A DNA stretch of 64,000 bases from an uncultured Eubacteriales bacterium (GCA_963545265.1 CAUUHY010000005.1:53-64052); one strand, 5' to 3'; shown: positions 1,193 through 26,287, counted from the first letter of the stretch. A program made the numbers and translations. The notes: generated by a model not told the origin, from the sequence alone.

Positions 1193-1221
1193 ATATATTT
1201 TTTAAAAGTATATTTAATTTT

Positions 1222-1959
1222 TTATTTTAACATTTTATAATATTCTGATATCCAGTCCCTTCTTTTACCATTTTTTCTTTTATAATTTAAAGAACCATAA
1301 ACATAACCATCATCTTTTGATAATATTTCTATAGTTTCTATTTGATTATAATTTATTTTCCAAACACAACCTTGTAAAATATTACTATCAGTAGTAATAC
1401 ATTTAGAAAAACTTTTCTCTATTATATTACATATTTTTAAAAAGTTTTCATCATTTCTACATTCATTAAATTTATCTTTTCTAACATATGCTTTTAATTC
1501 TTCTTTTGTTATTTTATTTTCTTTTAAAAGTTTTTCAAATTTATCTTTATCAGTTTTATTATCAGGAATATAAAGGTTACTTAACAAAAATGAATATCTT
1601 CTAAAATCTGTTATGAATATTTCTGATTTTTTTACATTGAAAGTAATTTTTACATCAAAACCTTCAACTCTTTTACCTTTATGTTTAGGTGGACAAATAG
1701 AATCATTACATTTTACCCAACACCAAATTGGATATTTAGCTCTAGTTTTATTTTCTACTTTTTTATTCATGTTATTTATAAGCCAGTTATAAGTAGGACC
1801 GACTTTTTCTATATCAACATATTTATTTTCGCATATTAAATAACCATTTTTTATCAAGTATTCTAAAGCTGATTTAGTTTGAAAAGTTATTACTTTCATG
1901 AAAATCCTCAATTCTATATTTTGTTTAAATAAGTATATCATATAGAAGTTATTAATCAT
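1222..1959 (-). CDS. hypothetical protein (Cys/Trp-containing); true start probably the internal Met of MKVITFQTK
   Basis: A long ORF tightly spaced between its neighbours (16 bp and 30 bp gaps). No family recognised. Confidence 0.4.
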   Translation of the reverse strand: MINNFYMIYLFKQNIELRIFMKVITFQTKSALEYLIKNGYLICENKYVDIEKVGPTYNWLINNMNKKVENKTRAKYPIWCWVKCNDSICPPKHKGKRVEGFDVKITFNVKKSEIFITDFRRYSFLLSNLYIPDNKTDKDKFEKLLKENKITKEELKAYVRKDKFNECRNDENFLKICNIIEKSFSKCITTDSNILQGCVWKINYNQIETIEILSKDDGYVYGSLNYKRKNGKRRDWISEYYKMLK

Positions 1960-1974
1960 AAGTATTTTTATATA

Positions 1975-3441
1975 CTAAGGTTTATTTTTAAAAGTTTGTT
2001 TTTTAGCAGATAATATTTCATAACTATAAACATTTACTATAATTTTTATATCATCTATTTCACAATACCATTTACTACCAACTCTATAAATATTACAATT
2101 TTGATCTTTTATTTTATTTCTACAGTAATCTATAACTAAATTACCAGATAAATTTAAGTTTTTTGTTATTCTCATAAATCCTTCATAACTTAAATGAAGT
2201 TTATTTAAATTAGCTAAAAATTCTTCTTTGGTAACATTAATAACTCTTTTTGGATTTTTTAAGTAATCAGTATTTTCATATTTTGCATAATTTATAATCC
2301 AATCCTTATCTTTACTTTCCCACCAATAATTTTTAGACAAAGCAATTTTATCAATAACTCTATATGAATATATATTTTGTAACCTAAAATTACACATATT
2401 TTCTCTTTTTACAACTGCTTCAACTAAATTTTTTTTGTTTCTTGCTTTTCCAATAACTACTCGATAAGCTCCTTCATCTCCCCATTGAGGAGGTGCTACA
2501 TATACTTTTGTTCCAGGTGTAAAAGTCTTTGTTCCATATTTATAAATATGATTTTCACCATATATTCTTCTATCAACAATATTTGCTACCAAACAACATC
2601 TAATAGAATTATCGTATTCTATTTCATTATTTCTATATTCATCTTCTTTTTCATATTTAGATAATAATTTATCAGAAATTAAATATTCTTTTACAGAACC
2701 ATTTCTTATAAAACGGTTAATAATATAATTATAAATTAAAGGATTATTATTGTTTAATATGTCACTGTTTTGTAATTTTATAATAGCTTTCATTCTATTA
2801 ATTCTTCCTAGTTTTTTTATAATATCTAGTGCTTTTCTTGCCAAATACTCATATTTTAAATTTTTTACTATTCCATTTGAAACATTTCTAATATCACTAT
2901 TTATTTTTACTATATTATCCCACTTTTTACTATAATTTTTAATTTCATCTAAAGATAAAACTCTTTCATCTATTTTATTTTTTAACATATCATTCATAGT
3001 TAAACTATTCTTATGAAAATTATCAATGTTAATAACTTTTATTTCTTTTTCTTTTATTAACTCATAAAATTCATTACAAAAATATAGTAAATTCAAATAA
3101 CTATTACTATCATTTTGATCAACCCATAACCTTATTTTTCTATATTTATTTACTTCTTCTTTTATATAATTTAAATTATTTACTTCATAAGCATATATTT
3201 TTCTATTAAATTCTTTATCCATATATTCAATACAAGTTAAATGTCTAAATAAAGAAGCTATATCACCAGTTGCTAGTTCTAGTTCAATTCTCAAAATAGA
3301 ATTAGCATTTATACTATTTTTTAAATCTCCTAATTCATATAAAGTAGAAACAATCTCTAAAGTAGAAGAATAATTTAAACTATCACGATATAAACTAATT
3401 GTATATATTTCATTTTGATTAATTGTTTTGTATTTTTCCAT
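1975..3441 (-). CDS. hypothetical 488-aa protein, first gene of the three-gene operon
   Basis: A long ORF with a 310-bp AT-rich upstream region. The C-terminal third has a possible PUA/ASCH-like segment (GTKTFTPGTKVYVAPPQWGDEGAYRVVIGKAR), which is a weak call. Confidence 0.4.
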   Translation of the reverse strand: MEKYKTINQNEIYTISLYRDSLNYSSTLEIVSTLYELGDLKNSINANSILRIELELATGDIASLFRHLTCIEYMDKEFNRKIYAYEVNNLNYIKEEVNKYRKIRLWVDQNDSNSYLNLLYFCNEFYELIKEKEIKVINIDNFHKNSLTMNDMLKNKIDERVLSLDEIKNYSKKWDNIVKINSDIRNVSNGIVKNLKYEYLARKALDIIKKLGRINRMKAIIKLQNSDILNNNNPLIYNYIINRFIRNGSVKEYLISDKLLSKYEKEDEYRNNEIEYDNSIRCCLVANIVDRRIYGENHIYKYGTKTFTPGTKVYVAPPQWGDEGAYRVVIGKARNKKNLVEAVVKRENMCNFRLQNIYSYRVIDKIALSKNYWWESKDKDWIINYAKYENTDYLKNPKRVINVTKEEFLANLNKLHLSYEGFMRITKNLNLSGNLVIDYCRNKIKDQNCNIYRVGSKWYCEIDDIKIIVNVYSYEILSAKKQTFKNKP

Positions 3442-3751
3442 AAAAACACCTTTAAGATAATTATAACACTCTTTAATATTTTTAAATTAAAAAACCAGCT
3501 ATTAAACCACTCCATTTGGAACAATTCAATAAACTGGTTACATTCTTATTGTCTTCGTTTAAATCAACAATATTTACTCTAACATCAACTATAAATAATT
3601 ATAAAATGTAATATATAAATTTTAAACTTTAATTTAAAAATAAATTATAATTTGTTTTAGAACAAATATACAAAATAATAACAACAAGAATGTATGGCTA
3701 AAAATATTTATTTTTATTTAATCCACAAAATAACTTAGTAGAACCAATAAA

Positions 3752-4439: not shown

Positions 4440-4698
4440 TTGACATTTTTTATTTCTTCTAAATTCGTTTATCACTTTCTCAAACCTAAAAATATGTTCT
4501 AGCAATAACTCTTTCTTCGCTCATAATTATAGTGTAATCTTTTCCTAATTTTTTTAGCTATCCTTCGTAATTATCAAAATATCTATCTAAACCACCTGAA
4601 TCATTAATATCAGATTTGTATTCATAATATTCATTAATATACTCGATTGCATTATTTTTTCTTTCAATCGATGGTACATCAAAATATAATTTTTCCAT
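4440..4698 (-). pseudogene. decayed paralog of the GNAT acetyltransferase at 6880-7482 (nonsense mutations)
   Basis: The minus-strand translation gives MEKLYFDVPSIERKNNAIEYINEYYEYKSDINDSGGLDRYFDNYEG*LKKLGKDYTIIMSEERVIARTYF*. This aligns with MEKFYLEKPTLKRKEEAIDYFNEHIKYNVDMNDTGGINQFLKESTYENWLKKL... of the intact gene. A TAG replaces the conserved Trp codon, and further stops follow. Confidence 0.5.
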
Positions 4699-4807: not shown

Positions 4808-5236
4808 TTAATTAAATTGTCCTTTTCTTTGTTTTACTAATATAGCTCCTTTTTTCTTTGCCCATTTATATGGACTACCTACTCCATAAGGTCTTGGATA
4901 ATTATCGTAGCCATTCTTATCATTAAAGCCATATAAATAAGCCATATCATTACTATATCTAATCATTCCATTTTGTTTTAAATAGTCAAATAAATCTTCA
5001 TCTATATCATAGTTACCAATCAATTGAGAATCTTCTCCATTATTACTTGCTGGAACATTATACTTGTAATATTTCTTTTCATCCCACATAACAAATCTTG
5101 GTTTTAATTCTATTTTTTTAAAAGAACAAACACCTAGAGTTGGACAATCCATTGTATTATCATTAAACACGATAAACTCAAAAGTATTATTATCAAACGA
5201 TGTTGCATAAAATTTACCAATTTCATATTTTTCCAT
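4808..5236 (-). CDS. hypothetical protein
   Basis: ORF only. Confidence 0.35.
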   Translation of the reverse strand: MEKYEIGKFYATSFDNNTFEFIVFNDNTMDCPTLGVCSFKKIELKPRFVMWDEKKYYKYNVPASNNGEDSQLIGNYDIDEDLFDYLKQNGMIRYSNDMAYLYGFNDKNGYDNYPRPYGVGSPYKWAKKKGAILVKQRKGQFN

Positions 5237-5322: not shown

Positions 5323-5593
5323 TGAAAAGTTCGTGTAGGCAAATACCCAAGATAGCTCAATATAAATATTTTATATCTCCTCACTTGGTTAATATTATAC
5401 ACCATTTTTTTAATTTTTCCAATTTCTATTGTTTAATCCATTCCAGTAATATATTCATCTTCTATTTTATCAGAACATCTTGATACAAATCTTTGTCTTC
5501 TAAACGCTTCTTAACCACATCCTTTTAAGTATATTTCTCTCTAAAGTGTTCCATAACATTTATATATTCTATCCAATATTTATCTACTAATAT

Positions 5594-6610
5594 TTATTTC
5601 ATGTGAGAAGAAATAATACTTGAATTATATGCATTATTTATGATTGGGTCAGCTAGCTCACCAACTCCTTTTCCTGATCTATTATTATGTGATCTTCCAG
5701 GAATTACATAATGTTCTATCTTTATTCCCATTGCTTTTAACGCTTCGACTGTTTTTTGTGCTCTTTCAAACATATTATATCCAAAAATTTCTCTTTGTTT
5801 TCTTCCAACTGATGAAGGAACACTTACATCAAAATAACTCATATCATGCATTGGTGCAGGATTTCCATCATCATCAAATCTAGTATTAACTTTATTTATA
5901 GTTTCTAATTCACCAACATAATATGTAAAATCAATTTCACAATAGCTATCCATGTCAAATTCTTTACCTGTTAATTCTTTATAATCAGATATACCAATTG
6001 GATAACCAATATTCTTAATTGGGACTGGTATACTCCCACTTGCTCCTCCAATACATGCGGTATGTATTAATTCAGGATGTAATAGTGAAAATCTTTGTGC
6101 GAAAACTCCAGAACTCGAATAACCATTTAAAAATATTTTATCTTCTAAATCCACTCCTATTTCTTCTTTAACAGTTATTTTAGCTTCATCAATCATTTTA
6201 ACTATTTGCTCATCTATTCTATAGCAATTGTCTTCTGGTTCTAATTCAAAGCATCCTCTTGATAATTGTTGAAAATATATTGAATTTTTACCATTTGGAA
6301 TTAAAGGAACAAGAATTACTCCAGGTTTATCTTTGGTTAAATTAACTAATTTAGCTCCAGTTTCTATACCTTGATTTATTATATTTTCAAAATTATCAGT
6401 TTCAAAATTATTCGATTCTAAAATAATTCTTTTGCTTATTTTTTCACACAATGGTATAGCTATAATACTAGGAATATTTATTCCTTTTTCAAAATCAGGT
6501 TTTTGAAATCTAATTTTATATGGTATTTGATTAATAACATAATCTAAATCAACATTTCTACCTTCTTTTATTTCTTTAGAAATATATTCTAATAATTTTT
6601 CATTTTCCAT
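5594..6610 (-). CDS. alpha/beta-hydrolase fold protein (esterase/lipase-like)
   Basis: A GxSxG nucleophile elbow (GYSSSG) is followed downstream by conserved Asp/His-containing segments. Confidence 0.6.
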   Translation of the reverse strand: MENEKLLEYISKEIKEGRNVDLDYVINQIPYKIRFQKPDFEKGINIPSIIAIPLCEKISKRIILESNNFETDNFENIINQGIETGAKLVNLTKDKPGVILVPLIPNGKNSIYFQQLSRGCFELEPEDNCYRIDEQIVKMIDEAKITVKEEIGVDLEDKIFLNGYSSSGVFAQRFSLLHPELIHTACIGGASGSIPVPIKNIGYPIGISDYKELTGKEFDMDSYCEIDFTYYVGELETINKVNTRFDDDGNPAPMHDMSYFDVSVPSSVGRKQREIFGYNMFERAQKTVEALKAMGIKIEHYVIPGRSHNNRSGKGVGELADPIINNAYNSSIISSHMK

Positions 6611-12397: not shown

Positions 12398-13402
12398 CTA
12401 ATCTACATATCCAATTATTTCTTTTAATTCACTATATGGATAAGGAGCTTCATCCTCGTTATAATATGCAATATTAACAACTCTAGCTTCTACCTCTTCG
12501 TCGTTCAAGCCTCTAGGAACAAGAATAACATCTCCAATCTTATAATCATGATCTGATTTATAGCTATATAATCTATCTCCATACATATCAGAATACTCAA
12601 CATATATATACTTTAATTTTTGTTTTTTCTTCTTTTTGACATAGTACTTACCATATTTTTTATTAAATTCATCCATTGTGTTTATTGTATAAGTTTCAGG
12701 TTCTAAGTTAGGATATGCATAACTTATAGAACCTCCATTACTACCTTTTTCTTTAATCATGAAATTAACTTGTTTATGAGGATAATCATCTGTATCTCTT
12801 TGTTTTCTTATACCATTTTCTACAACATATTCATGACCATTATTTGTTTTATCTATTGTATATATAAGTAAATTATCAAATGATTCTGTATCAAAACTAT
12901 ATTTTACAAAACTTTCGTAAGTTAATTCATACTCTCTATCAATTATATTTTTATCTAAATCTATTATATATACTTTAGTCAAATCATTAGTTACATAATA
13001 TTTATATGGATTAACTGGATTTCTTTTTAGCAAATCTTTAATAGGAGTTTTTTCAAACTCATCTGTATATTCGTTTATATTCATTACTAAATATTCATTT
13101 AATTTTTTTATTTCGTCAATCGATATCTTATCTAATGATTTTGTTAGTTCAAATTTTCTATAACAATATTCTGGTTTATAACTCCATAAATGAGCTGTTT
13201 TGCAATCATCACATAACCAAAAATAATCATTATCTTCATAAAATGATGCCATTTCTTCATAAGCATCATCAAAATTCTTAGTATCATCATTTGCTATATA
13301 ATCTTTTAAATCTTTGAAACTAAAAATATCATATACTATATGACCATCACCATCCCACATATTAGCTCCACATTTACATCCCATATGACTCATTAGTAAC
13401 AC
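12398..13402 (-). CDS. hypothetical protein with an N-terminal zinc-ribbon-like Cys cluster (CKCG ... CDDC)
   Basis: ORF only. C-x-C and C-x2-C pairs are present in the first 70 aa. Confidence 0.4.
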   Translation of the reverse strand: MLLMSHMGCKCGANMWDGDGHIVYDIFSFKDLKDYIANDDTKNFDDAYEEMASFYEDNDYFWLCDDCKTAHLWSYKPEYCYRKFELTKSLDKISIDEIKKLNEYLVMNINEYTDEFEKTPIKDLLKRNPVNPYKYYVTNDLTKVYIIDLDKNIIDREYELTYESFVKYSFDTESFDNLLIYTIDKTNNGHEYVVENGIRKQRDTDDYPHKQVNFMIKEKGSNGGSISYAYPNLEPETYTINTMDEFNKKYGKYYVKKKKKQKLKYIYVEYSDMYGDRLYSYKSDHDYKIGDVILVPRGLNDEEVEARVVNIAYYNEDEAPYPYSELKEIIGYVD

Positions 13403-13545
13403 CTCTCTTCACATATAAATATATCATGCTTTTAGTATATTTTTTGCAATTAACACTTCATTATAAAAATTATATAGCCAAGCACTAAATCAAAGTGACT
13501 CCAGAATGGCTCCAGCCCTTATTTTGGACTATTTTTTGATAAAAA

Positions 13546-13611
13546 GAAAAACTCGTAAGTCCTTATTTATAGGACTTTAGGAGTCTTATTTACCACTACT
13601 ACCACATGGCC
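13546..13611 (-). repeat. degenerate copy (A) of the secA 3' end plus terminator module
   Basis: It aligns with 17956-18045. The terminator hairpin ACTCGTAAGTCC...GGACTTTAGGAGT is retained, and the SEC-C codons are shortened to PCGSSGK*. Confidence 0.5.
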
Positions 13612-13738
13612 TTTTGTATTCGAAATTTTGAAAGTTTTTTTGAAACAATTGGAAACTTATGTGAGCACTCCATAGCACTCGGTAAAACTAGCAAAACTTA
13701 TCTAAAAAAATTTAATTTTAATTTTTTACCATTTTTAA

Positions 13739-15016
13739 TTATAGTTTTATTGTTTCAAGAGCATCAATATTAATTAACATTTCATTACCATCATCCATAT
13801 TCTTAATTTTCAATTGACCACTAGAAATTTCATCAGTTCCTATAACTATGACATATTTAATTTTTTCTCTATTAGCATAATCAAGTGATTTTTTTAGTTT
13901 TCTTTTATTCATTTCTATATCAACATTATAACCATTTTTTCTAAATTGGTTTGCAAGTTTTAAAGATTCTATTTCTGTTCCCATCGGTATGATAAAGATA
14001 TCAGTATTTGACTTTTCTTTTTCTAAATCCTTTTTTAATAATTCATATATAGCAGATAGGCCAAAACTAATTCCAACAGTAGGATATTCTTTTCCGTCTC
14101 CTATAAAGTTTCCAATCATTTCGTCATATCTTCCACCTGCTGCAATGCTACCTTTTATTCTTTCTCTTTTATCATAAACTTCAAATATATTTCCTGTATA
14201 GTAATTTTGACCTCTTGCTAATGTAATATCAAAATTACAACAATTGAGTTCAAGTTGTCTTAAGTATTCACTCAAATTATTTACTTCTTCTAATCCTTTT
14301 AATATTTTTTCATTATTAGTATTTTTAAAAACTTGATTTAATGTTGATAAATTCATCTGAAAATAATTGTTTAGATTTTTTATTACTTTTTCTGTTAATC
14401 CTAACTCCGATAACATTTGATTGAACTCTATATCTTTTAGTTTATCTTTCTTATCTACAATAGTTGTTACCTCTGGTACTAAGTCTTCAGATATTCCTGA
14501 CTCAATAATTAATCCGCTCATAAGTTTTCTACTATTGTATTTAATTATAATTTCAATATTAAATTCTTTAAATGTTTTTACAAATAATGATAATAGCTCT
14601 GCTTCAATATATTGTCCTTTTATACCAACAACATCTGCATCACATTGAGTAAATTCTCTATCTCTACCAACTTTAACAGGTCCATCTCTAAACACTTTTG
14701 ATATCTCATATCTCTTAAATGGAAGTGATATTTTATTTTTATTTAATGCTATAAACTTTGCAAAAGGAACTGTTAGATCATATCTTAATCCTAAATTTCT
14801 ATTTCCTTGGTCTGTTAATCTATATATTTCTTTTAAAATATCATTATTTTCATCATACTTATCACTAAGCATATCATAATAGCATAATATAGGTGTTTCA
14901 ATATTAACAAATCCATATTTTTTAAAATTATCTATTATTATACTATTTATATAATTTCTAATTTTTTGTTCTTTAGGTAAAAAATCATAACCACCTTTAA
15001 CATTTTGTATTTTCAT
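13739..15016 (-). CDS. hisS: histidine--tRNA ligase
   Basis: Class II aaRS motifs (GxRYDLTVPFARF-like, GGRYD) and a C-terminal anticodon-binding domain. The start is set at the Met preceded by an AGGATGA Shine-Dalgarno. Confidence 0.85.
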   Translation of the reverse strand: MKIQNVKGGYDFLPKEQKIRNYINSIIIDNFKKYGFVNIETPILCYYDMLSDKYDENNDILKEIYRLTDQGNRNLGLRYDLTVPFAKFIALNKNKISLPFKRYEISKVFRDGPVKVGRDREFTQCDADVVGIKGQYIEAELLSLFVKTFKEFNIEIIIKYNSRKLMSGLIIESGISEDLVPEVTTIVDKKDKLKDIEFNQMLSELGLTEKVIKNLNNYFQMNLSTLNQVFKNTNNEKILKGLEEVNNLSEYLRQLELNCCNFDITLARGQNYYTGNIFEVYDKRERIKGSIAAGGRYDEMIGNFIGDGKEYPTVGISFGLSAIYELLKKDLEKEKSNTDIFIIPMGTEIESLKLANQFRKNGYNVDIEMNKRKLKKSLDYANREKIKYVIVIGTDEISSGQLKIKNMDDGNEMLINIDALETIKL

Positions 15017-15025
15017 AATAATCAT

Positions 15026-15262
15026 CCTATCTATTTTTTCAATTAAAAAAGCTATACAATGGTCCTTGTATAGCTAAATCATTTATATATTTAAAGCTAG
15101 ATACAAGCACCACAAATAGCACTTGTACCATGTACATTTTTTAACGTCGGTTCAAGTGCAAATTATTATGATAATGTAAATTAGTTAATTTTAAGTTTAA
15201 CATAACAATCTCTCCCTTTTAATGTAATAAATTATAGTGCTTTTTACATAACTTTGCAAATT
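15026..15262 (-). promoter_or_regulatory. hisS leader: near-consensus sigma-A promoter (TTGCAA-17-TATAAT at 15254-15231) and a ~200-nt leader. The leader ends in a perfect terminator hairpin (AGCTATACAA-ggacca-TTGTATAGCT plus U6 at 15045-15075) with an upstream competing antiterminator sequence (CTTGTATCTAGCT). This is a probable T-box riboswitch.
   Basis: The promoter hexamers and the terminator are read directly. The antiterminator alternative pairing overlaps the terminator 5' arm. hisS is commonly T-box regulated in Firmicutes. The canonical T-box 14-mer is only partly recognisable. Confidence 0.45.
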
Positions 15263-15308
15263 TCATAAAAAACTTATCTAAAATTTTTAAATTGTAATTT
15301 TTTATTCA

Positions 15309-15334
15309 ACAACTTATCTAATAACTTATCTAAA
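15309..15334. repeat. 26-bp perfect direct repeat ACAACTTATCTAATAACTTATCTAAA, copy 1 (two tandem 12-mers), abutting the methyltransferase stop codon
   Basis: Identical to 16839-16864. Confidence 0.7.
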
Positions 15335-15970
15335 TTATTTCATTTTTCTAGCCTTAATTAAACTATAATCGTCTTTATCAACATTACTTGAAGTTATTTC
15401 TTGAAAGCCAACCTTTTTTAATACTTCTATTTCATGTTCAACAGTAAGTGGTGTATCTATATGTTTGTGATTTTCTATATTGTTTTCTAGTTCATATAAT
15501 TGACCATCTTCTATTTCTTGTGATAAAGCTATCTTATCGCAATTTATAAATTGACCATTTTCTTTTAAACAATCATATATCTTTTTATATAGTTTTATTT
15601 TTTCTTCTATTTTAAAGTGATGAAGAGCTGATGTAGATATAACTGCATCATAATTATCTCCAAATTCTACTTCAAAGAAATCACCACATATAGTAGTTAC
15701 ATGATCTGCAAAACTTCTTTTCTTTAATTCTTCAAGCATATTTTCGGTAATATCTATGACTGTTACTTCAGCACCTGGAAATAGTTCAAATACATGAATT
15801 AATTCTAATCCTGTACCTGCACCCAAGTCTAATATTTTTTTAGTTTCTTTGTCTAAGCTATCTCCTAATGTTTTTTTAGTTTCCATATATGTACTATGTA
15901 CATCATCATAAGAATCTATCTTTTCATTAAAGAATGTTCTTTGTTTTTGATTTCTTTCATATAAATTCAT
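15335..15970 (-). CDS. class I SAM-dependent methyltransferase (small-molecule type)
   Basis: Motif I ILDLGAGTG and a post-I acidic residue, in a Rossmann-like fold. Confidence 0.7.
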   Translation of the reverse strand: MNLYERNQKQRTFFNEKIDSYDDVHSTYMETKKTLGDSLDKETKKILDLGAGTGLELIHVFELFPGAEVTVIDITENMLEELKKRSFADHVTTICGDFFEVEFGDNYDAVISTSALHHFKIEEKIKLYKKIYDCLKENGQFINCDKIALSQEIEDGQLYELENNIENHKHIDTPLTVEHEIEVLKKVGFQEITSSNVDKDDYSLIKARKMK

Positions 15971-15972
15971 AA

Positions 15973-16527
15973 TTATATCCCCCTTAAATTTACTTCTATA
16001 TTATTTCTAATTAAATCTTTGATTTCTTTATCTGTTAATTTAATACTATTTACACATAACTGTGTTGCTATACCATGAGTATAGAATCTTACTTCACGAT
16101 ATACCTTTTTTGCTTCTCCTAAAGATATTTTATATTGTTTTACCATTGCATTAATAGTTTCAACGTTTCTATCAGTATTTAACACTTCTTCTACTGTTCT
16201 AGAACCAGCAAAATCAGTCATAAACAATGAAAAGAATATATTTGGTTCTTTTTTTGCATAAAAAGCATATGCATAACTTATTGTGTATAAATAATCTTTT
16301 ATATCTATATACTTACGAATAAATGATGAGTAATCTTTCCTTAAATAAAATTTTAGATCTTCTTTATACATATCAAAGTTTTCATAGTTTTTAAATATTG
16401 GTTGTGTTGAACATCCTATATATTTAGCAAGTTCTCTAACTGTTAGATTAGAGTAACCTTTTTCCTTTATAAATTCAACACTCTTTTCTAATATATCTTC
16501 TTTAGAATATTTAATAGTTCTCGCCAT
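15973..16527 (-). CDS. TetR/AcrR family transcriptional regulator
   Basis: N-terminal HTH (LTVRELAKYIGCSTQPIFKNY). The start is set at the ATG with a GAGGTGA Shine-Dalgarno; the longer ORF begins at a GTG. Confidence 0.75.
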   Translation of the reverse strand: MARTIKYSKEDILEKSVEFIKEKGYSNLTVRELAKYIGCSTQPIFKNYENFDMYKEDLKFYLRKDYSSFIRKYIDIKDYLYTISYAYAFYAKKEPNIFFSLFMTDFAGSRTVEEVLNTDRNVETINAMVKQYKISLGEAKKVYREVRFYTHGIATQLCVNSIKLTDKEIKDLIRNNIEVNLRGI

Positions 16528-16550
16528 AAATATCACCTCACAAACGCATA

Positions 16551-16568
16551 AAATAACATTTGTTATTT
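16551..16568. promoter_or_regulatory. candidate TetR operator: perfect 8-bp inverted repeat AAATAACA-tt-TGTTATTT about 25 bp upstream of the tetR start
   Basis: A palindrome with the geometry typical of TetR-family operators. Confidence 0.4.
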
Positions 16569-16653
16569 TATTTTTAATGATTTAATATGTTTTTTAGAAA
16601 AAAACGTATCTAAAGTACTTTTTTGATAAAAATTACTAAAAATGTGGAACAAA

Positions 16654-16741
16654 GAAAAATCTCGCAATCCCTTTATTTATAAGGGAAAACGAGATTATTT
16701 ACCACAACATTGTTTATATTTCTTACCACTTCCACATGGTA
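16654..16741 (-). repeat. copy (B) of the secA 3' end plus terminator module
   Basis: It is 37/38 identical to the secA SEC-C codons (encodes ...LPCGSGKKYKQCCGK*). The terminator hairpin carries compensatory changes (TCCC/GGGA versus GTCC/GGAC). Confidence 0.6.
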
Positions 16742-16838
16742 ATAATTTAAAACAACCAGGTAATTTTTTCCTTTTAAATTGGTGTTTTTTATTTAAAACT
16801 TATAATTTTTTGTTCAATTATTGTAAGTTTTTTTTCGT

Positions 16839-16864
16839 ACAACTTATCTAATAACTTATCTAAA
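16839..16864. repeat. 26-bp perfect direct repeat, copy 2, about 25 bp downstream of the UDG-fusion gene stop
   Basis: Identical to 15309-15334. Confidence 0.7.
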
Positions 16865-16888
16865 AAAATTATTTTAGTGTGCTGAGAT

Positions 16889-17797
16889 CTAAAAGTTTGT
16901 AATATCTTGTAAATTCAAATTCTTAAATATTTCTTCATTACCTTTATAACTTAATGGTGATATAGGACTAGGATGATATATAGGGATTATTTTATATCCA
17001 TTTACATCAAATACCTTTCCAACAACATCAGAAAACCTTTTATATTTTACATCTAAAATCGTTCTAGTTGCAGAATATCCTAATGATAGTATTACTTTAG
17101 GTTTTATTTCTTCTAATTGCATAAAAAGAAATTTTTTACAGTTGATACTACACTTGTTTAAATATTTTTTATCAATAGGATAGCATTTTATTGCTTCAAT
17201 AAAATATGTATCTTCAATTGTTAAATTTATTAAATTTAATAATTTTTGCAAAACAACACCAGATGGTAACAATTTATGATTTATATCATACCATGCTATC
17301 CCACTTTTTCTCCAACCATTATTAGCTGGTGCTTCACCAAGTATAACAACATCTTTTTGCTTTCCAAATGAAACAGTTTTGCTATTAGGAAACTTTTCCA
17401 CCATATTTGAACACAAACTACAATTTTGGATTTTTTCATCTATAAGATTTAACTTAACTTTTAATTTTAGTAATTGATATCTTTCATTAGTATCTTCATT
17501 ATTTAAAACTTCATCTCTTGTTTTAATAACATAATTTGAATAATCAATTTTATCAACTTTAAATTGATCAGATGTAAAATCAATAATTTTATCATTGATA
17601 ATATTAAAATAATGACTAATACCGTTTATTTTTATTTTACAAATATTACCACCAAAATAATCATTTATCAATAATGCTACAATAGCACAATGTCCTAGAG
17701 TTTTATTATCTATATTCCATTGCTCTTTACAATCAGGATAACAAGTTTCTTTAGAATATATATTAATTAATATTTTTTCTAGTTTATCTAATTTCAT
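16889..17797 (-). CDS. fusion protein: N-terminal Cys-containing domain of unknown function plus a C-terminal uracil-DNA glycosylase superfamily domain (family 4/5-like)
   Basis: The C-terminal half has CxxC (NCSLCSNM), a GEAPA motif (VVILGEAPANNGW) and an HPSP motif (IYHPSPISPL), which are typical of UDG families 4 and 5. Confidence 0.55.
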   Translation of the reverse strand: MKLDKLEKILINIYSKETCYPDCKEQWNIDNKTLGHCAIVALLINDYFGGNICKIKINGISHYFNIINDKIIDFTSDQFKVDKIDYSNYVIKTRDEVLNNEDTNERYQLLKLKVKLNLIDEKIQNCSLCSNMVEKFPNSKTVSFGKQKDVVILGEAPANNGWRKSGIAWYDINHKLLPSGVVLQKLLNLINLTIEDTYFIEAIKCYPIDKKYLNKCSINCKKFLFMQLEEIKPKVILSLGYSATRTILDVKYKRFSDVVGKVFDVNGYKIIPIYHPSPISPLSYKGNEEIFKNLNLQDITNF

Positions 17798-17957
17798 ATT
17801 ATCCCTCAGCTAATAAATATTATATCATAAATCATTCATATTTCTTTATTTGTAATATTATTTATTTTTATTATCTAAAGAAGCAATTAAATCAGCAAAA
17901 AACTTATCTAAAACTTGTCCAGGACAAAAGATACGCTATAATTACCTAAATATTGCA

Positions 17958-18003
17958 ATCATAGAAAAACTCGCAAGTCCTTATTTATAGGACTTTACGA
18001 GTC
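17958..18003 (-). terminator. secA intrinsic terminator (GACTCGTAAAGTCC-loop-GGACTTGCGAGT plus a U-run)
   Basis: A hairpin immediately after the secA stop codon, followed by TTTTTCT on the minus strand. Confidence 0.65.
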
Positions 18004-20493
18004 TTATTTTCCACAACATTGTTTATATTTCTTTCCACTTCCACATGGACACATGTGGTTTCTACCTACTTTTTCTATATTTTTAGGTTTATTTTTTAAC
18101 TTAACTTTTCCATCATTAGTCATTTTTGACTTAGATATTTCTTGTCTTTCTTGATTTTGAGATATTTCAGATTTAACTAAGAATAAAGTTATTTCTTGAT
18201 CTATATTTTGTAACATCTTATTAAATAAGTCAAAACCTTCTACTGTATAAGCTCTAAGCGGATCTTGTTGACCATATCCTCTTAAATATATAGCTTCTCT
18301 AAAATGTTCCATAGCATTTATATGTTCTGTCCAGTATTTATCTACTACACTTAAAGTTATAACTTTTTCAAATTCTTCTACTACTTCAGTTGGTAATTCT
18401 TTTATTTTTTCTTGATATTCACTTAATATTTTTTCTTTTACAAAATATATTATAGCATCAGAATCCATTGAAGCTATTTCATCAAATTTAATATCTTCTC
18501 TAAGTAATGTATTAAAATATTCGACTATTTCTTGTAGATCTTCTTTTGTTAATTTTTCACTATCTATTAGTTTTGATTTAACAACATCAGTAACATGGTT
18601 TTCTACTGCGACTAAAATACTATCGTGAATAGATTCACTATCTAATATTTCATTTCTCTTAGCATACATTATTTCTCTTTGATTATTCATAACATCATCG
18701 TATTGTAATAAATTTTTACGAATATCAAAGTTGTTTCCTTCAACTCTTTTTTGTGCTGAAGAAAGCCCTTTAGTAAATCTCTTACTAGTTATTGCTTCTG
18801 TTTCTTCAAAACCTAATCTAATAAGCATATTCTTTAGACCATCAGTTCCAAATCTAACCATTAAATCATCTTCCATAGAAACATAAAATTGACTAAATCC
18901 AGGATCTCCTTGTCTTCCACTTCTTCCTCTTAACTGATTATCAATTCTTCTTGATTCATGTCTTTCAGTTCCTAAAACACATAAACCTCCAAGATCTTTA
19001 GTTTCATCAGTAAGTTTAATGTCAGTTCCACGACCTGCCATATTAGTTGCAACTGTAACTGCGCCTTTTTGTCCTGCTTTAGCTATAATTTCTGCTTCTC
19101 TAGCGTTGTTTTTAGCATTTAAGACTTCATGTTCGATATTTTTAGATGTCAACAATTGACTAATTAATTCATTAGTTTCTACAGCTATAGTACCAATAAG
19201 TATCGGTTGACCTAATTTATGTCTTTTTTCAACTTCATTAATTAAAGAAGTAAATTTACCTTTTTGTGTTGGATATAACAAATCTGGAGCATCTATTCTT
19301 GCTACTGGTTTATTAGTAGGAATACAAATAACTCTCATATTATATATATCATTAAATTCTTCTTCTTCAGTTTTAGCAGTACCTGTCATACCAGATAATT
19401 TATTATACATTCTAAATAAGTTTTGGAATGTTATAGTAGCTAAAGTCTTAGTTTCTTGATTAATCTTAACGTTTTCTTTAGCTTCTATAGCTTGATGAAG
19501 ACCATCACTATATGCTCTTCCCTTCATTAAACGTCCAGTAAATTGATCTACTATAACTATTTCACCATTATTAACTACATAATCTACATCTTTTCTCATA
19601 GAGAAATTAGCACGCAAAGCCTGATTAATATGATGAATTAAATTAGCATTTGATACTTCATAAAGATTAGCTAAATGGAATTCTTTTTCTCCTTTTTTAA
19701 CTCCTTCTTCTGTAAGTGTAACTGTCTTATTTTGTTCTTCATAGATATAATCTACATCTTTTTTTAATTTCTTAGCAAATCTATCTGCTGCTTCATACAT
19801 AGAAACATTTTTTAAATCTCCTCCAGATATAATTAAAGGAGTTCTAGCTTCATCTATTAAAACTGAGTCAACTTCATCTACTATTGCAAAATTAAGTTTT
19901 CTTTGTACTCTATCTTCTTTATGAGTAACCATATTATCTCTTAGATAATCAAATCCAAGTTCATTATTTGTAGTATATAAAATATCACATTCATATGCTT
20001 TTTTCTTTTCTTGTGGAGTTAAATCTCTTAAATTTATTCCAACGCTAAGTCCTAAAAATTCATGTATTCTTCCCATCCACTTAGCATCACGATCTGCAAG
20101 ATATTCATTAACAGTTACTATGTGTGTACCTTTACCATCTAGTGCATTTAAATAAGCTGGTAAGACAGAAGTTAAAGTTTTACCTTCTCCTGTTTTCATT
20201 TCAGCTATATTACCTTTATGTATAGCAATAGCACCAAGTAATTGAACATAGAATGGTTTTTCATTATTTACTCTAAATGCTGCTTCTCTTGCCGTAGCAT
20301 AAGCTTCAACTAAAATATCATCTAATGTTTCACCATTTTCTAATCTATTTTTAAATTCATCAGTCTTTGCTTTTAATTCATAATCTGAAAGTTTAGAATA
20401 TTCTTCTTCTAACTCTTCAATTTTATCAGCAATTACAGAAAATTTTTTAAGTTCTCTATAATCTTGATCAAATAATCTTTTTAAAAAATTCAT
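18004..20493 (-). CDS. secA: preprotein translocase ATPase SecA
   Basis: DEAD-like motor motifs, a preprotein cross-linking domain and a C-terminal SEC-C zinc finger (CPCGSGKKYKQCCGK). Confidence 0.95.
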   Translation of the reverse strand: MNFLKRLFDQDYRELKKFSVIADKIEELEEEYSKLSDYELKAKTDEFKNRLENGETLDDILVEAYATAREAAFRVNNEKPFYVQLLGAIAIHKGNIAEMKTGEGKTLTSVLPAYLNALDGKGTHIVTVNEYLADRDAKWMGRIHEFLGLSVGINLRDLTPQEKKKAYECDILYTTNNELGFDYLRDNMVTHKEDRVQRKLNFAIVDEVDSVLIDEARTPLIISGGDLKNVSMYEAADRFAKKLKKDVDYIYEEQNKTVTLTEEGVKKGEKEFHLANLYEVSNANLIHHINQALRANFSMRKDVDYVVNNGEIVIVDQFTGRLMKGRAYSDGLHQAIEAKENVKINQETKTLATITFQNLFRMYNKLSGMTGTAKTEEEEFNDIYNMRVICIPTNKPVARIDAPDLLYPTQKGKFTSLINEVEKRHKLGQPILIGTIAVETNELISQLLTSKNIEHEVLNAKNNAREAEIIAKAGQKGAVTVATNMAGRGTDIKLTDETKDLGGLCVLGTERHESRRIDNQLRGRSGRQGDPGFSQFYVSMEDDLMVRFGTDGLKNMLIRLGFEETEAITSKRFTKGLSSAQKRVEGNNFDIRKNLLQYDDVMNNQREIMYAKRNEILDSESIHDSILVAVENHVTDVVKSKLIDSEKLTKEDLQEIVEYFNTLLREDIKFDEIASMDSDAIIYFVKEKILSEYQEKIKELPTEVVEEFEKVITLSVVDKYWTEHINAMEHFREAIYLRGYGQQDPLRAYTVEGFDLFNKMLQNIDQEITLFLVKSEISQNQERQEISKSKMTNDGKVKLKNKPKNIEKVGRNHMCPCGSGKKYKQCCGK

Positions 20494-20557: not shown

Positions 20558-21079
20558 TTACTTATCTTCCTCAATAAGTCCATAATTTTCATCTTTTCTT
20601 TTATATAACACTTTTATATCCATAGATTCAGCATCTTTAAATATAAAGAAATCATGTCCTAATAATTCCATTTGTAATATTGCTTCTTCTTCATTCATAG
20701 GAATTAGTTCGATTTTCTTTCTCTTAACTATAGATTTTTCATTAGATTTTAATTCTTCTATTTCTTCATAGATAAATATTTCTTCTCTTCTTTTAGAAAG
20801 CTTAGTTTTATTTTTTCTAATTTGTCTTTCTATTTTATCTATAGATAAATCAATTCCCGCATATAAATCATCATTTTTTTCTTCAGCTCTTATATATAAA
20901 TTTCCCGTATTTAATGTAAACTCTACACTATAATTTGTATTTTTATTACCAGAAAGCAATACATTTAATTCCATATCTTCTTTGCTAATATACTTATTTA
21001 ATTTAGAAGATTTTTCTTCTATATAACTCTTAATAGAATCTGTCACTTCAAAATCTTTTGCTCTAATATTTATTCTCAT
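20558..21079 (-). CDS. hpf: ribosome hibernation promoting factor, long form
   Basis: N-terminal YfiA/RaiA fold (MRINIRAKDFEVTDSIKSYIEEK) and a C-terminal dimerisation domain. Confidence 0.85.
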   Translation of the reverse strand: MRINIRAKDFEVTDSIKSYIEEKSSKLNKYISKEDMELNVLLSGNKNTNYSVEFTLNTGNLYIRAEEKNDDLYAGIDLSIDKIERQIRKNKTKLSKRREEIFIYEEIEELKSNEKSIVKRKKIELIPMNEEEAILQMELLGHDFFIFKDAESMDIKVLYKRKDENYGLIEEDK

Positions 21080-21114: not shown

Positions 21115-24100
21115 TTATTTTCTCTTTTTACAAGTCTTTCTTGATTTTTGACAGTAAGATTCGTTTCCTGCTTTATCTTTAGCTCTATAACAAGTTCCAC
21201 CATCTCCATCACAATTTGAATTTTTCTTTTTATTTACCGTTTCTCCTGATTTAGAAGTAGCTAAGCCACTTTCATAATCTTCAAATTCACATTTTTTATA
21301 AAAAATACTACCATCTGAAGTTTCACATTCTGAATCTAAACTTTCTTTGGTTTGTACTGGTGGTTCATCATCTATTCTAAATGTTAAACTACATCCTCCT
21401 ACATTACCTGCTGCATCCATCATTAAAAGATTCATTGTTCTTGTATCAGAAGAATAATCATGATTCTTATCATCCTTTTTCTTCTTTTGTATTTTTTTCA
21501 TAAACTTTTTAGCTTTATCAGTAATTTTTGTATGGTCAGAACCCATATGACCATTATTTTCCCAAATAGTATCGTGACTATTCATAATAAATCGCTCATA
21601 TTTAGGTTTTGGTTTTTTAACACCTGTTACTTCATCTTTATCAGAATCTTCATCTCTTAATTTATAATAAGGTTCTGCAAAAGCTATTTTATTAAGATTT
21701 GATAACATTTCCATACTCTGTACTTTAAAATTTTTTACATCAGTTATCCATTTACCATCTTCTGTATAATCAAAATCCCAATTGCTAGTATCATTTAAAT
21801 AATCTCTATCTAAAGAACCTTTTATATCTCTAGATACTTTATCTCTAACAATATTAAATGTACAAACTGGATTAGTTTTATCTATTAATACTCCATACTT
21901 AGCAACTGTCTTTCTACCTTCATCAGAAAGATTTCTATAACTTCTTGTATTTAATTCACAAACACCCATATTACCAGCTAAATCATATATAACTCCATAA
22001 GGTTTAGTCCATGCACTATAATTTGGAGTTCTAACATGTTCATTTGGATTAAGTGCCGTTTCTTTAGTCATTCTAAATACATCACCATATTCATCAACTT
22101 GTTCTAATTTTATATAATCATCATCAAAATAAGATTTAAGTCCTGCTGTATTACCTGCTGTATTACGTTTTCCCCAATTTATTTGTGAATACAAAAAGTT
22201 AGGTGCTACATCTATATAACTATTTGCTAAATCATTTGGCACATTAGTCACAGGTCTTAAGCATTTATTATTTCCTTTATAAGTAAACTTATCATTATTA
22301 CTACGTTCCCTAACACCTTCTGTACCATTACAACTGTCTACTTTATCAAGATCAGAAAAATAAACATATACATCACTATTAAACCACCAATTAATATTAG
22401 GATGGTTTCCTCTTATACTTATTTGACAAACAGGTGATTGTTTTCTTATATTTTGTACTTCAACAGTCTGTTGCACTCTATTACCAGCATTATCAACAAC
22501 AATTACTTGATACGATCCGTTATTAGATGCATATCTATATTTCTCTCTAGAAGTTATTTTATTACCAGTATTATTTTCAACTGTTTCAATTTCTTTAATA
22601 CCACTTATATCGTCTCTTGCATCAAAATATAATTGAACAGCATTTCTTGTAAATATTCTTTTTCCTCTTACTGGATTTTCATTACTTCTTGTATATACAT
22701 AAACAGATTTAATATTATTTATGTTACCTTGAATTTGTAAAGAATTTAAATCTCTCACTTCTGGAAATCTAAGTAAAACTCTTCTTCCACCATTACTTAT
22801 AGTCCTAGTAAATATTTCTCCATTTACATTAAATATGTATTCTGATGCTTGCGAATTATCTTTCAATTCTATAGCTATAAGTTTAACGTCTGTAAAATCA
22901 GTTATATTCTCTGCTCCATAAATTCCCATAACTGGATCTCTTAAAGTCCATTGTTCAGTTCCTTTAAGTCCTTTTTTGATATTACATCCTTCTTCTCCAT
23001 TATCATATTTATCTGTATATTGACTAGGGAAATATCCAACTTTTCTACACGCACTTTCATCTACAACTAATTCTTGATCACGATCATATATTTGATATCC
23101 ATAATATATATCTTCTGGAGTTAATTCCGGTGGTTTTCTATCATTAGTAGTTTGAATAGGGTTACGACAAGAACTTCCATTACAATAATTATTTGGATTA
23201 TTATTATTATTATGAGGATAATAATTATTGTTTCCTCCCCTATTATGCGGAGACCATCCTTTGTCTCTACTTAATTCGTTACCAGCATTATCTTTTGCAT
23301 ATCCATATACTAGGTTAATACCATCTTTTAATTCAAGCTCTGTTAATTGATTATAATTTGGTGTATCTGCACTATCTCCAAGACCCCAAGTAGCTATTCC
23401 ACTTTCATTATCTTTTAAATAAGTTATTTGGACTTTTCCATTATTTAAACCTAAGGAAATATATGGATTTCTAACATCTTGCATTACCTTAACTTCACAA
23501 GCTGTAGATCTTCCTTTTCTATCATAAACATTTATATTTTCTTTTACTTTATAACTTCCTGGTTTTGCTTCAAACTTCTTACTATAAAGTTCTCTTTTAC
23601 ATCTTTCTCCACCTAATTCATCAATACATCTTACAGAAGTTTCTACTTCTTTATTTGTCCATTTATCATTTTCTATTTCTACTTCACATTGAACATTAGG
23701 ACATACTTTACCTTTTTCACACTTATTAGTACCAGGTTGATAATTTTCATCTGTTTCATCATCATCTGATTCTTTTAATTTTAAAAGACTCTTACAATCA
23801 TCTTTTAATCTATTTTTTCTACATTCTAAATATTTATTTAAACCATCATAAAGATTTGAACATCCAATACCAACTTCATTACCACAAATAATACAAGCTT
23901 TGTATTCGTAATTTTGATTACCAACATTTTTTATTTGAACAATACTGATATCTCTATAACAATATCTTTCTTTCTCATCAGTTCCTTCTTTATAATAAGG
24001 ATTTTTTAAATCTTGTTCATATCCTTCTTCTATAAGTTGTCCTAAAGTTACTATTTCTCTAGAATTTTCTTTTGGAACTGGACAATTTTTATTGTTAGTA

Positions 24101-24339
24101 TCTTCGCAATATTTATTTTCGCTAAGATATGTACTCGTCATATTTTTTCCTGCTGTCTTCATTCCGTTTTCGTGACTAATAAGTACATTTTTTTTAGTCT
24201 TACTTATATATCCAGTTACAGATATTATCGCAATAGAACTAAGAATCCCTATAATAACGATAACTGCTATAATTTCTACTAGAGTAAACGCTTTTTTACT
24301 GTGTTTACATTTTTTGTTACATTTTATTTTTTTCTTCAT
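21115..24339 (-). CDS. giant (1074 aa) Cys/Asn/Lys-rich surface protein with a type IV prepilin (class III) N-terminal signal and five internal D-x-AGN repeat modules
   Basis: Leader MKKKIKCNKKCKHSKKA is followed by FTLVEIIAVIVIIGIL with Glu at +5. D-x-AGN motifs recur every ~100-260 aa (AKDNAGNELS, VVDNAGNRVQ, YDLAGNMGVC, MMDAAGNVGG, AKDKAGNESY). An AGGGAG Shine-Dalgarno precedes the ATG. Confidence 0.6.
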   Translation of the reverse strand: MKKKIKCNKKCKHSKKAFTLVEIIAVIVIIGILSSIAIISVTGYISKTKKNVLISHENGMKTAGKNMTSTYLSENKYCEDTNNKNCPVPKENSREIVTLGQLIEEGYEQDLKNPYYKEGTDEKERYCYRDISIVQIKNVGNQNYEYKACIICGNEVGIGCSNLYDGLNKYLECRKNRLKDDCKSLLKLKESDDDETDENYQPGTNKCEKGKVCPNVQCEVEIENDKWTNKEVETSVRCIDELGGERCKRELYSKKFEAKPGSYKVKENINVYDRKGRSTACEVKVMQDVRNPYISLGLNNGKVQITYLKDNESGIATWGLGDSADTPNYNQLTELELKDGINLVYGYAKDNAGNELSRDKGWSPHNRGGNNNYYPHNNNNNPNNYCNGSSCRNPIQTTNDRKPPELTPEDIYYGYQIYDRDQELVVDESACRKVGYFPSQYTDKYDNGEEGCNIKKGLKGTEQWTLRDPVMGIYGAENITDFTDVKLIAIELKDNSQASEYIFNVNGEIFTRTISNGGRRVLLRFPEVRDLNSLQIQGNINNIKSVYVYTRSNENPVRGKRIFTRNAVQLYFDARDDISGIKEIETVENNTGNKITSREKYRYASNNGSYQVIVVDNAGNRVQQTVEVQNIRKQSPVCQISIRGNHPNINWWFNSDVYVYFSDLDKVDSCNGTEGVRERSNNDKFTYKGNNKCLRPVTNVPNDLANSYIDVAPNFLYSQINWGKRNTAGNTAGLKSYFDDDYIKLEQVDEYGDVFRMTKETALNPNEHVRTPNYSAWTKPYGVIYDLAGNMGVCELNTRSYRNLSDEGRKTVAKYGVLIDKTNPVCTFNIVRDKVSRDIKGSLDRDYLNDTSNWDFDYTEDGKWITDVKNFKVQSMEMLSNLNKIAFAEPYYKLRDEDSDKDEVTGVKKPKPKYERFIMNSHDTIWENNGHMGSDHTKITDKAKKFMKKIQKKKKDDKNHDYSSDTRTMNLLMMDAAGNVGGCSLTFRIDDEPPVQTKESLDSECETSDGSIFYKKCEFEDYESGLATSKSGETVNKKKNSNCDGDGGTCYRAKDKAGNESYCQKSRKTCKKRK

Positions 24340-26195: not shown

Positions 26196-26287
26196 TTTAT
26201 CTCCTTCCGCCATGATTTATTAAAAATCATAGAAATTAAATACGATGTTATTTTAACAAGTAATCAAAAACTTTTCAAGTATTATTA

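Follow-up and report, generated by a model that had tools for sequence, protein, structure and literature searches.

Composite islands of the staphylococcal cassette chromosome (SCC) are found at rlmH in staphylococci, and SCC elements use serine recombinases. Cis-mobilizable elements (CIMEs) keep attL and attR, have lost their integration and transfer genes, and accrete in tandem at a gene 3' end, as modeled on ICESt1/ICESt3 (PMC5704250). In Dehalococcoides, tandem genomic islands are targeted to ssrA (PMC3146451). Here we analyzed a 64,000-nucleotide stretch of DNA from an uncultured Eubacteriales bacterium (GCA_963545265.1, CAUUHY010000005.1:53-64052), referred to below as the window, in which a 12-mer, AACTTATCTAAA on the plus strand, recurs behind secA and the genes that follow it. 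Judged from sequence comparison, the 12-mer is probably an arm-type accessory repeat of lambda-style attachment (att) sites that target the secA 3' end, and we predict that it serves as an integrase docking site.

The exact 12-mer was found on the plus strand at 13695, 15271, 15323, 16853, and 17901, and its ...AAT variant (AACTTATCTAAA/T) at 15311 and 16841; read along the gene strand, the motif is TTAGATAAGTT. An earlier note on this DNA had listed these seven positions, all in one orientation and with no exact copy elsewhere in the 64-kb window, and every coordinate proved correct, as did a perfect 26-bp direct repeat (15309-15334 = 16839-16864). An eighth copy with one mismatch, AACGTATCTAAA, lies within the cluster at 16603. 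At up to one mismatch, the window (about 23% G+C) contains 15 occurrences, compared with 3.38 ± 1.67 expected, and this count was reached by 0 of 100 shuffles. Exact boxes in the same orientation relative to secA were also found downstream of secA in metagenome-assembled genomes (MAGs) with 65-70% SecA identity, and the double box is present in at least 118 metagenome contigs. Because exact copies recur behind secA in these distant MAGs, the cluster is not a local accident. The note had also placed the motif after every transcription unit downstream of secA; this is correct for secA, the YunG-UDG fusion gene, the tetR-methyltransferase unit, and hisS, and incorrect for the units farther downstream (12398-13402 onward), where none was found. 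Two additional one-mismatch copies on the plus strand (38530-38541 and 38593-38604), located 63 nt apart in or near the open reading frame at 37737-39071, may be chance matches.

The genes from hpf through hisS all lie on the minus strand, and the last 45 nt of secA with its terminator occur three times in the window. The copies of the secA end reported earlier are real: 18004-18048 in secA itself, 16695-16739 (copy B, 96% identical), and 13545-13599 (copy C, 93% identical, internally deleted). No further secA-end copy was found downstream of copy C in the window. Each copy begins with the octamer CCATGTGG, and repeats unrelated to this core stand at fixed distances on both sides of it, as expected of att arms (17901-17923, 16841-16864, 16603-16614, 15311-15334, and 13695-13706). 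Three att sites at 18048-17901, 16864-16603, and 13706-13493, together with a core-deleted remnant at 15334-15271, bound three integrase-less cassettes. Every cassette has its own copy of the stretch encoding the last 12 secA codons, and under the proposed model the tail at 18004-18040 would belong to cassette 1. The remnant (15271-15334) has lost the core, the secA-end copy, and the hairpin, and cassettes 2 and 3 are now fused because of this deletion. Beyond att C lie older, unrelated cargo and boxes of other specificities.

We compared this arrangement with 1.9 Mb of related sequence, collected as 80 secA-selected loci (L001-L080) and metagenome loci chosen for the double box. By its SecA, the source belongs to the uncultured, low-G+C gut Bacilli. 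The closest MAG by SecA is 99% identical (L001), and all others are at most 74% identical. A complete att site spans ~275 bp and consists of a box pair in 12-nt phase (P arm), a spacer of ~100 nt (about 100-110), CCATGTGG, 12 secA codons and a stop, a hairpin, ~40 nt, and a box pair in 11-nt phase (P' arm). In L059, L061, and many metagenome contigs, a cargo gene is followed directly on its 3' side by the P box pair and then by the att site as in the window, and in these arrays the P' box pair precedes a promoter and the next cargo gene. The TTAGATAAG boxes are co-oriented at a ratio of 425:27. Among the 11-nt-spaced pairs, 41/64 lie 75-93 nt past a SecA-type stop and 0/64 before one; the degenerate P' box of the window (17913-17923), which begins 80 nt past the secA stop, falls within this range. 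Conversely, 36/100 of the 12-13-nt-spaced pairs stand 99-171 nt (median 109) before a secA-end copy, and only 1/100 after one. A hidden Markov model (HMM) of the module from the core to P' detected 268 sites in 164 loci, and the scan revealed 67 loci with 2-5 att sites at spacings of 0.7-8.7 kb (median 1.5 kb). The genes immediately before the P-arm pairs are diverse (49 proteins in 37 clusters).

The layout of the first 200 nt past secA is conserved (a hairpin with ..ATAAATAAGG.., which is retained behind secA in the relatives, then ~40 nt, then two direct repeats ~11 nt apart), while the repeat itself is genome-specific. The types found behind secA include TTAGATAAG, TTAGATACG, TTAGATACC, TTAGATCAG, TTAGAACCA, TGGAGCCA, TGTTTGCAA, TGTGCACA, TTGTCCACA, and others. 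Boxes are swapped within a conserved spacer context (TGGAGCCA, TTAGAACCA, and TTAGATCAG), with nearly identical flanks in some cases, and exact boxes are kept across species while the surrounding spacers drop to 70-80% identity. Several matches were set aside: those in metagenome loci L114 and L150 look like chance, and those from viral collections (L199, L200, L201, and L204) are chance occurrences inside coding regions of unrelated phages.

The position of the crossover was mapped by comparing all pairs among 231 att sites, with positions counted from the first C of CCATGTGG. Sites sharing the left flank and differing on the right first diverge at position 9-10 of CCATGTGG-N (11 cases); for example, the right end of one integrative and mobilizable element (IME) is joined to TTAGATAAG- or TTAGATACG-type residents (L155/L175 versus L181). 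Where the right flank is shared and the left differs, identity begins at position 2-4 (L144/L116 and L157/L111). Because these break points fall in or next to CCATGTGG, strand exchange appears to take place inside this core, which corresponds to codons P-C-G in the C-terminal zinc motif of SecA, and not at the boxes. One hybrid att site, for instance, combines the TGTCCACA-boxed P arm of an IME with the TTAGATAAG-boxed P' arm of a resident. In keeping with a short core at which donor and recipient sequences are exchanged, L220 has an extra cassette between two cores. The 12-mers, which the earlier note had considered as recombination sites, lie about 100-135 bp to each side of the inferred exchange point, and its view of the secA-end copy as cargo gives way to one in which the copy starts at that point. 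Its broader ideas fared better. The motifs are orientation-fixed sites at cassette junctions, and relatives differ by gain and loss of cassettes exactly at such sites, with the boundary set by the core CCATGTGG and not by the 12-mer. The suggestion that an unlinked recombinase uses the sites also holds in its central idea; the associated integrases are tyrosine recombinases of phage and IME type.

Two integrase families are linked to the sites in relatives. The IME-type family matches the Pfam models Phage_integrase, Phage_int_SAM_3, and Arm-DNA-bind_4, and is accompanied by an HTH_17 excisionase and a Mob_Pre (MobV) relaxase; in 11 loci, the integrase gene lies ~225 nt past secA. The IME boxes vary with the integrase N-terminus, as represented by ..RGGVRRY../TGTGCACA, ..VDGTRKW../TTGTCCACA, ..INGKRKY../TGTTTGTAA, and ..QRGVRKF../TGTGTGCA. 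At IME right ends, the order is int, boxes, ~150 nt, core, and the resident P' arm of another box type, which makes a hybrid att. In L029, the IME boxes were found only between secA and int, and the right ends are clear from L155, L157, and L100.

The phage-type family yielded 989 homologues at E <= 1e-40, and 27/53 of its members carry a Pfam match to Arm-DNA-bind_4. Among solved structures, the nearest is that of Tn1549 Int (PDB 6EMY, 6EMZ, and 6EN0), and integrases of cultured phages are ~29% identical to the family. In the IMG/VR contigs L202/L205 and L203/L206, two TTAGATAAGTT boxes lie ~45 nt past a secA-end copy and hairpin. On their other side, at a distance of ~75 nt, is the stop of a convergent integrase gene (369 aa), which heads a CI / Cro / Erf / exonuclease / SSB lysogeny module. 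In L213, L214, and L209, the integrase is convergent to full-length secA, and the gap of 124-130 nt holds a hairpin and a box pair (TTAGATAAGTT x2, TTAGATACGTT x2, and TATCTACA x2, respectively); the L213 integrase likewise belongs to a CI/Cro/Erf/SSB lysogeny module. In L211, a phage abuts an IME end with the pair TACATACGTTT x2, and in L104, where the secA-end copy is degenerate, the integrase gene converges on this copy and its stop is followed by TAGAACCATTT x2. A putative cognate integrase stands beside the site in relatives (L205, L206, L213, and the IME loci), and not in the 64-kb window.

Truncated integrase genes, which retain 146 aa from the N-terminus or ~60 aa from the C-terminus, recurrently abut TTAGATAAG pairs (Table 1). 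These junctions resemble the scars of deletions that ran between an arm box and an integrase gene, which suggests that the arm boxes themselves may be deletion-prone.

Gene order upstream of secA (…hpf-secA) is preserved in 80/80 loci, and downstream of secA none of them, including the 99% relative, has content in common with the window. In several relatives, prfB lies directly behind secA or follows after 0.9 to >8 kb of unrelated genes; the secA-prfB junction is therefore an insertion hotspot. Of the related MAG contigs, 21/80 stop within 250 nt of the secA stop, six of them at or within the last secA bases, as would be expected at a repeated or strain-variable site.

Cassettes differ at the cores both between and within species. 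The tetR-methyltransferase unit (16747→15291) is 88.7% identical over 1464 nt to a unit in L125, located directly behind the real secA of a genome with 63% SecA identity, and the cassette was also found in L160, L161, and L091. The hisS unit (15304→13660) is 86% identical over 1655 nt to its counterpart in L082 (60% SecA identity), where a complete att site precedes it. Because the same units recur in different species and array positions, they look like discrete cassettes and not like products of random decay. The secA-UDG-tetR-MTase (methyltransferase)-hisS array occurs in 94 index blocks of an assembly collection, and the six contigs shown, which come from different samples, agree in gene order as far as hisS. 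In strain L220, whose shared parts are 98-99% identical to the window, there is an additional APH cassette of 1.3 kb. It has TTAGATACC boxes and an intact core on either side, and its position is exactly that of the single deleted copy C in the window.

Compared with L001, homology stops 40 nt past the secA stop and resumes after 13.5 kb in the window and 3.3 kb in L001. Copy C with its TGGAGCCA boxes matches the sequence directly behind secA in L001, and the flank and box type at 13493-13514 (TGGAGCCA type) are those found directly behind secA in L001 and L078. Since the copy C region corresponds to post-secA sequence of L001, three TTAGATAAG-type cassettes appear to have been added proximally to an older site, in agreement with the prediction of the accretion model (PMC5704250). 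Locus L147, considered as an excised circle, turned out to be merely a cassette-sized fragment.

In the mechanism that we propose, a heterobivalent tyrosine integrase would bind the boxes through its N-terminal arm domain and the core through its catalytic domains, and the combined binding would fold the att site into an intasome. This complex would recombine with CCATGTGG of secA or of any resident copy. The incoming tail would restore the gene, and SecA would stay intact because the arriving DNA brings a replacement secA tail. Each newcomer would displace the older cassettes distally, and successive integrations, decay, and box-to-box deletions would produce the array. In this scheme, the partner that contacts the boxes would be the N-terminal domain of the integrase, and neither Xis nor a host protein. 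As no integrase is encoded in the 64 kb, mobilization would need one in trans or co-excision with a neighboring prophage or IME, and integrase-less cassettes are presumably mobilized by either route. The cassettes of the window may still be mobile. A further-reaching reading, possible and in our judgment somewhat improbable, would make the secA tail a dedicated, integron-like gene-capture platform of lambda-type att sites, in which small, promoter-bearing, single-gene cassettes, each with a full attP and a replacement secA tail, would be traded as excised circles between species by phage and IME integrases in trans, and the boxes would serve as interchangeable address labels that determine the integrase by which a cassette is moved.

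Several observations weigh against arm-type boxes used by an integrase. A tblastn search with both families detected no integrase of either in the window, which leaves current mobility unproven. No excised circular cassette was present among the contigs, none of which had terminal repeats, nor could a complete prophage flanked on both sides by TTAGATAAG boxes be read. The covariation between box and N-terminus is qualitative and concerns few independent lineages, and L205 and L213, at 54% overall identity, have the same box. The choice of metagenome loci by their double box biases the conservation statistics, a bias from which the secA-selected loci are free. A separate side observation is a palindromic super-site in some genomes, for which the simple P/core/P' model does not account: in L061 (~12590-12700), L082 (~4860-4960), L006, and L014/L025/L038, another small hairpin (CCTTATAAAATAAGG) stands behind the P' pair, and inverted copies of the boxes come after it.

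The boxes could also belong to att sites and be bound by an excisionase (Xis, the directionality factor) or a host architectural protein. Xis sites, as in lambda attP, typically also consist of direct repeats arrayed in tandem at about helical phase, as the boxes are; the IME-type integrases come with HTH_17 excisionase genes, and the L205 and L213 integrases beside TTAGATAAG boxes lack an Arm-DNA-bind_4 match at E <= 0.01, so that an arm domain is assigned to them by family membership. However, lambda Xis sites are confined to one arm, and the boxes here occupy both. The IME boxes change together with the integrase N-terminus, the arm-binding domain present in 27/53 phage-type members needs a cognate site, and the neighborhoods of the phage-type integrases in L205, L209, and L213 yielded no xis gene. 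We therefore regard this alternative as unlikely. Less likely still is a regulatory role, in which a transcription factor controlling the cassette genes would use the boxes as operators or as upstream elements of promoters and the link to recombination would be incidental. The box at 15271-15282 lies upstream of the hisS -35 element, 11 nt away, that at 17901-17912 is upstream of the UDG promoter region, and P' pairs generally precede cassette promoters. Yet the P-arm pairs stand directly 3' of cargo, followed by a ~100-nt spacer and a pseudo-secA tail without a promoter, and the prophage pair lies between the convergent ends of secA and int; for these reasons, the promoter/UP-element reading suggested by the box upstream of the hisS -35 was dropped. 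Moreover, the distance from box to promoter is variable and that from box to core is fixed, and the putative TetR operator is a separate palindrome (16551-16568). The earlier view that the motif is neither a terminator nor the TetR operator holds.

We give very little credence to the boxes as inert relics, carried without function by segmental duplications of the post-secA region in an A/T-rich genome. The ~23% G+C of the window, the longer duplicated segments in which the copies are embedded (D1-D5, D9, and D19), the decayed att at 15271-15334, and several degenerate boxes agree with such an origin. It is contradicted by the exact boxes, which outlast spacers of 70-80% identity across species of 57-68% SecA identity, by fixed phase and distances in >100 contigs, by discrete swaps of box type inside conserved flanks, and by the 0/100 shuffles that attained the observed count. 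Replication-origin iterons or DnaA-box-like sites have next to no likelihood. The boxes are tandem 11-12-nt direct repeats, and some box types (TTGTCCACA) are one mismatch from the DnaA box consensus TTATCCACA, but the genes on both sides are co-directional with no strand switch, no rep or dnaA gene is adjacent, and the sites are tied to the secA tail and integrases. The box sequences also differ widely between genomes, in contrast to the conserved DnaA specificity. An integron, as in the attC analogy drawn earlier, was rejected: the site is no folded inverted-repeat structure, IntI is missing, the integrases are of phage and IME type with arm-binding N-terminal domains, the repeats are direct, and the cassettes have their own promoters. 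A shufflon or phase-variable, invertible locus, also raised earlier, does not fit either, with all copies of the window in direct orientation and no inverted arrangement seen, the 425:27 ratio in relatives, and the common order in the six contigs. A dif/Xer site or Tn7-like end was dismissed, as there are no palindromic arms or inverted ends and the copies are all direct.

Table 1. Features of the secA-hisS region in the window, and junctions with truncated integrase genes in related loci.
Feature	Coordinates	Strand	Basis or remark
hpf	20558-21079	-	
secA	18004-20493	-	
Core/overlap CCATGTGG in functional secA, codons P-C-G of C-terminal zinc motif; putative attL crossover	18041-18048	-	Junction mapping
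Last 12 secA codons and stop; under the model, would be supplied by the proximal (newest) cassette	18004-18040	-	
secA terminator hairpin AAGTCCTATAAATAAGGACTT, part of the P' arm module	17975-17995	-	Terminator scan
Degenerate first P' box CTGGACAAGTT	17913-17923	-	Aligns with first TTAGATAAGTT of the pair in L061, L082, L100
P' arm box, gene strand TTTAGATAAGTT	17901-17912	-	Exact motif copy
YunG-UDG fusion, cassette 1 cargo	16889-17797	-	Pfam YunG and UDG
P arm box pair, 12-nt phase, end of cassette 1	16841-16864	-	Motif copies
P arm spacer, A/T-rich, 101 nt	16740-16840	-	Homologous spacers in dozens of contigs
Core B CCATGTGG (16732-16739) and secA-end copy B with stop	16695-16739	-	att HMM, E=4e-27
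Hairpin B TCTCGTTTTCCCTTATAAATAAAGGGATTGCGAGA, same module as behind secA	16660-16694	-	Read from sequence
att B P' box, variant TTTAGATACGTT (L074/L006/L214 box type), degenerate partner	16603-16614	-	
Cassette 2 cargo: TetR operator palindrome (16551-16568), tetR, SAM methyltransferase	15335-16568	-	Pfam
tetR	15973-16536	-	Pfam
SAM methyltransferase	15335-15970	-	Pfam
P arm box pair, end of cassette 2	15311-15334	-	In L125, pair followed by full spacer and secA-end copy
Remnant att: 28 nt of P spacer (15283-15310) joined to orphan P' box (15271-15282)	15271-15310	-	Repeats D19, D4
Cassette 3 cargo: promoter TTGCAA-17-TATAAT (15259-15231), ~200-nt leader, hisS	13739-15260	-	
Hairpin in hisS leader, strong, terminator-like	15050-15075	-	
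hisS	13739-15025	-	
P arm box, single, end of cassette 3	13695-13706	-	Same single box and flank in L082; doubled in L109, L177
Core C CCATGTGG (13602-13609) and internally deleted secA-end copy (…TAGTAGTGGTAAATAA)	13586-13609	-	
Hairpin C	13557-13577	-	Terminator scan
P' box pair of different specificity, TGGAGCCATTC TGGAGTCACTT, start of next older cassette	13493-13514	-	
Truncated-integrase/TTAGATAAG junctions in related loci	L111 4777-5246; L140, L142, L149; L109 818-1067; L177 4561-4800; L090 5564-5794		

The cassettes carry further features of their own. The TetR palindrome, AAATAACA-tt-TGTTATTT (16551-16568), is kept with the cassette in L125 (about 4570-4600) and two copies of it precede tetR in L160, as would fit an operator. 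The hisS leader (15026-15260, minus strand) is conserved with its cassette in L082 (4990-5215). The leader might be an attenuator, perhaps a divergent T-box; Rfam gave no match to the leader, T-box included, even at E <= 10, and we make no claim for a T-box. Aminoacyl-tRNA synthetase genes recur as att-flanked cassettes, namely hisS (13739-15025, and 5218-6492 in L082) and a gene for a 544-aa protein resembling methionyl-tRNA synthetase (MetRS-like) in L104 (11012-12646)/L196. An exact-protein look-up of hisS returned no match, and no second hisS is present in the window. The hisS and MetRS-like cargo might represent resistant or spare copies of essential enzymes.

Elsewhere in the window, an 83-nt intergenic fragment (5507-5589), located after the gene at 5594-6610 and far from secA, is 84.5% identical to an internal secA segment (L001 10546-10629) that sits about 260-340 nt before the secA stop; it may be a scar of an older array rearrangement. 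A 1074-aa protein with an N-terminal methylation (pilin-like) motif (21115-24339) shows 64% identity to its L001 counterpart, compared with 88-99% for its neighbors, and is a second locally hypervariable gene beside hpf-secA. At 1202-3491, the window encodes a DUF3841 protein (1222-1959) and a DUF1835/DUF3781 protein (1975-3441), in place of which L001 has ~66 nt (15433-15499); no recognizable secA-type att site was seen at this indel. A scan at the Rfam gathering thresholds returned a tmRNA (33531-33885) and an L31 ribosomal-protein leader (26201-26232), both ordinary and unrelated to the motif.

Arm-dependent integration and tandem accretion are known mechanisms; the integron-like setting at secA appears undescribed, and our literature searches returned no report of secA as an attB. 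Three aspects appear to be new: the secA zinc-motif codons as a target; the cassettes, which are small and highly diverse, bring promoters with them, and are found again as discrete units in other species; and a single core common to two integrase families with swappable arm boxes. A conspicuous motif thereby receives a concrete, testable mechanism, and the secA-prfB junction of an uncultured, small-genome lineage of gut Bacilli emerges as an apparently undescribed hotspot that holds 0 to >10 kb of exchangeable cassettes. The arrays house strain-level accessory genes, including drug-modifying enzymes, regulators, DNA-repair fusions, and aminoacyl-tRNA synthetases. Since they systematically break assemblies (21/80 contigs), MAG inventories may under-report the accessory genes located there. 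Two unrelated integrase families converging on one 8-bp core in an essential gene, with swappable boxes, offer a natural system for studying the evolution of arm specificity. The site and its matched integrases may also provide a safe harbor for integration in organisms that now have no genetic tools.

Among known systems, the sites resemble those of lambda and of the Tn916/Tn1549 Int family in their short exchange core, in the core-unrelated repeats about 100-150 bp to both sides, in integrases with N-terminal arm-binding and catalytic domains, and in an element that carries the 3' end of its target gene, which is thereby restored. In contrast to these systems, the target consists of SecA zinc-motif codons, most sites flank 0.7-5-kb cargo without an integrase, and the binding of the boxes by the integrase is a prediction. 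Like CIMEs and accretion arrays, the locus contains att-bounded elements without integration or transfer genes, and hybrid att sites join unrelated elements; the window itself has three cores in direct orientation, no integrase, and cargo genes only. Unlike CIMEs, however, most units here consist of one gene or one operon that brings its own promoter, and two unrelated integrase families share one core. The ssrA islands and SCC composites share repeated insertion at a gene 3' end, direct repeats of the gene end between tandem islands, and some members without a recombinase, whereas the direct repeats here extend into long, arm-bearing sites and the islands are much smaller. With integron arrays, the locus has in common ordered, small, diverse cassettes (49 proteins in 37 clusters) at one chromosomal platform with proximal entry. 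It differs from them in the lack of IntI, attI, and Pc, in double-stranded att sites of ~275 bp with direct-repeat arms instead of folded attC hairpins, in cassettes that carry their own promoters, and in a platform formed by the end of an essential gene.

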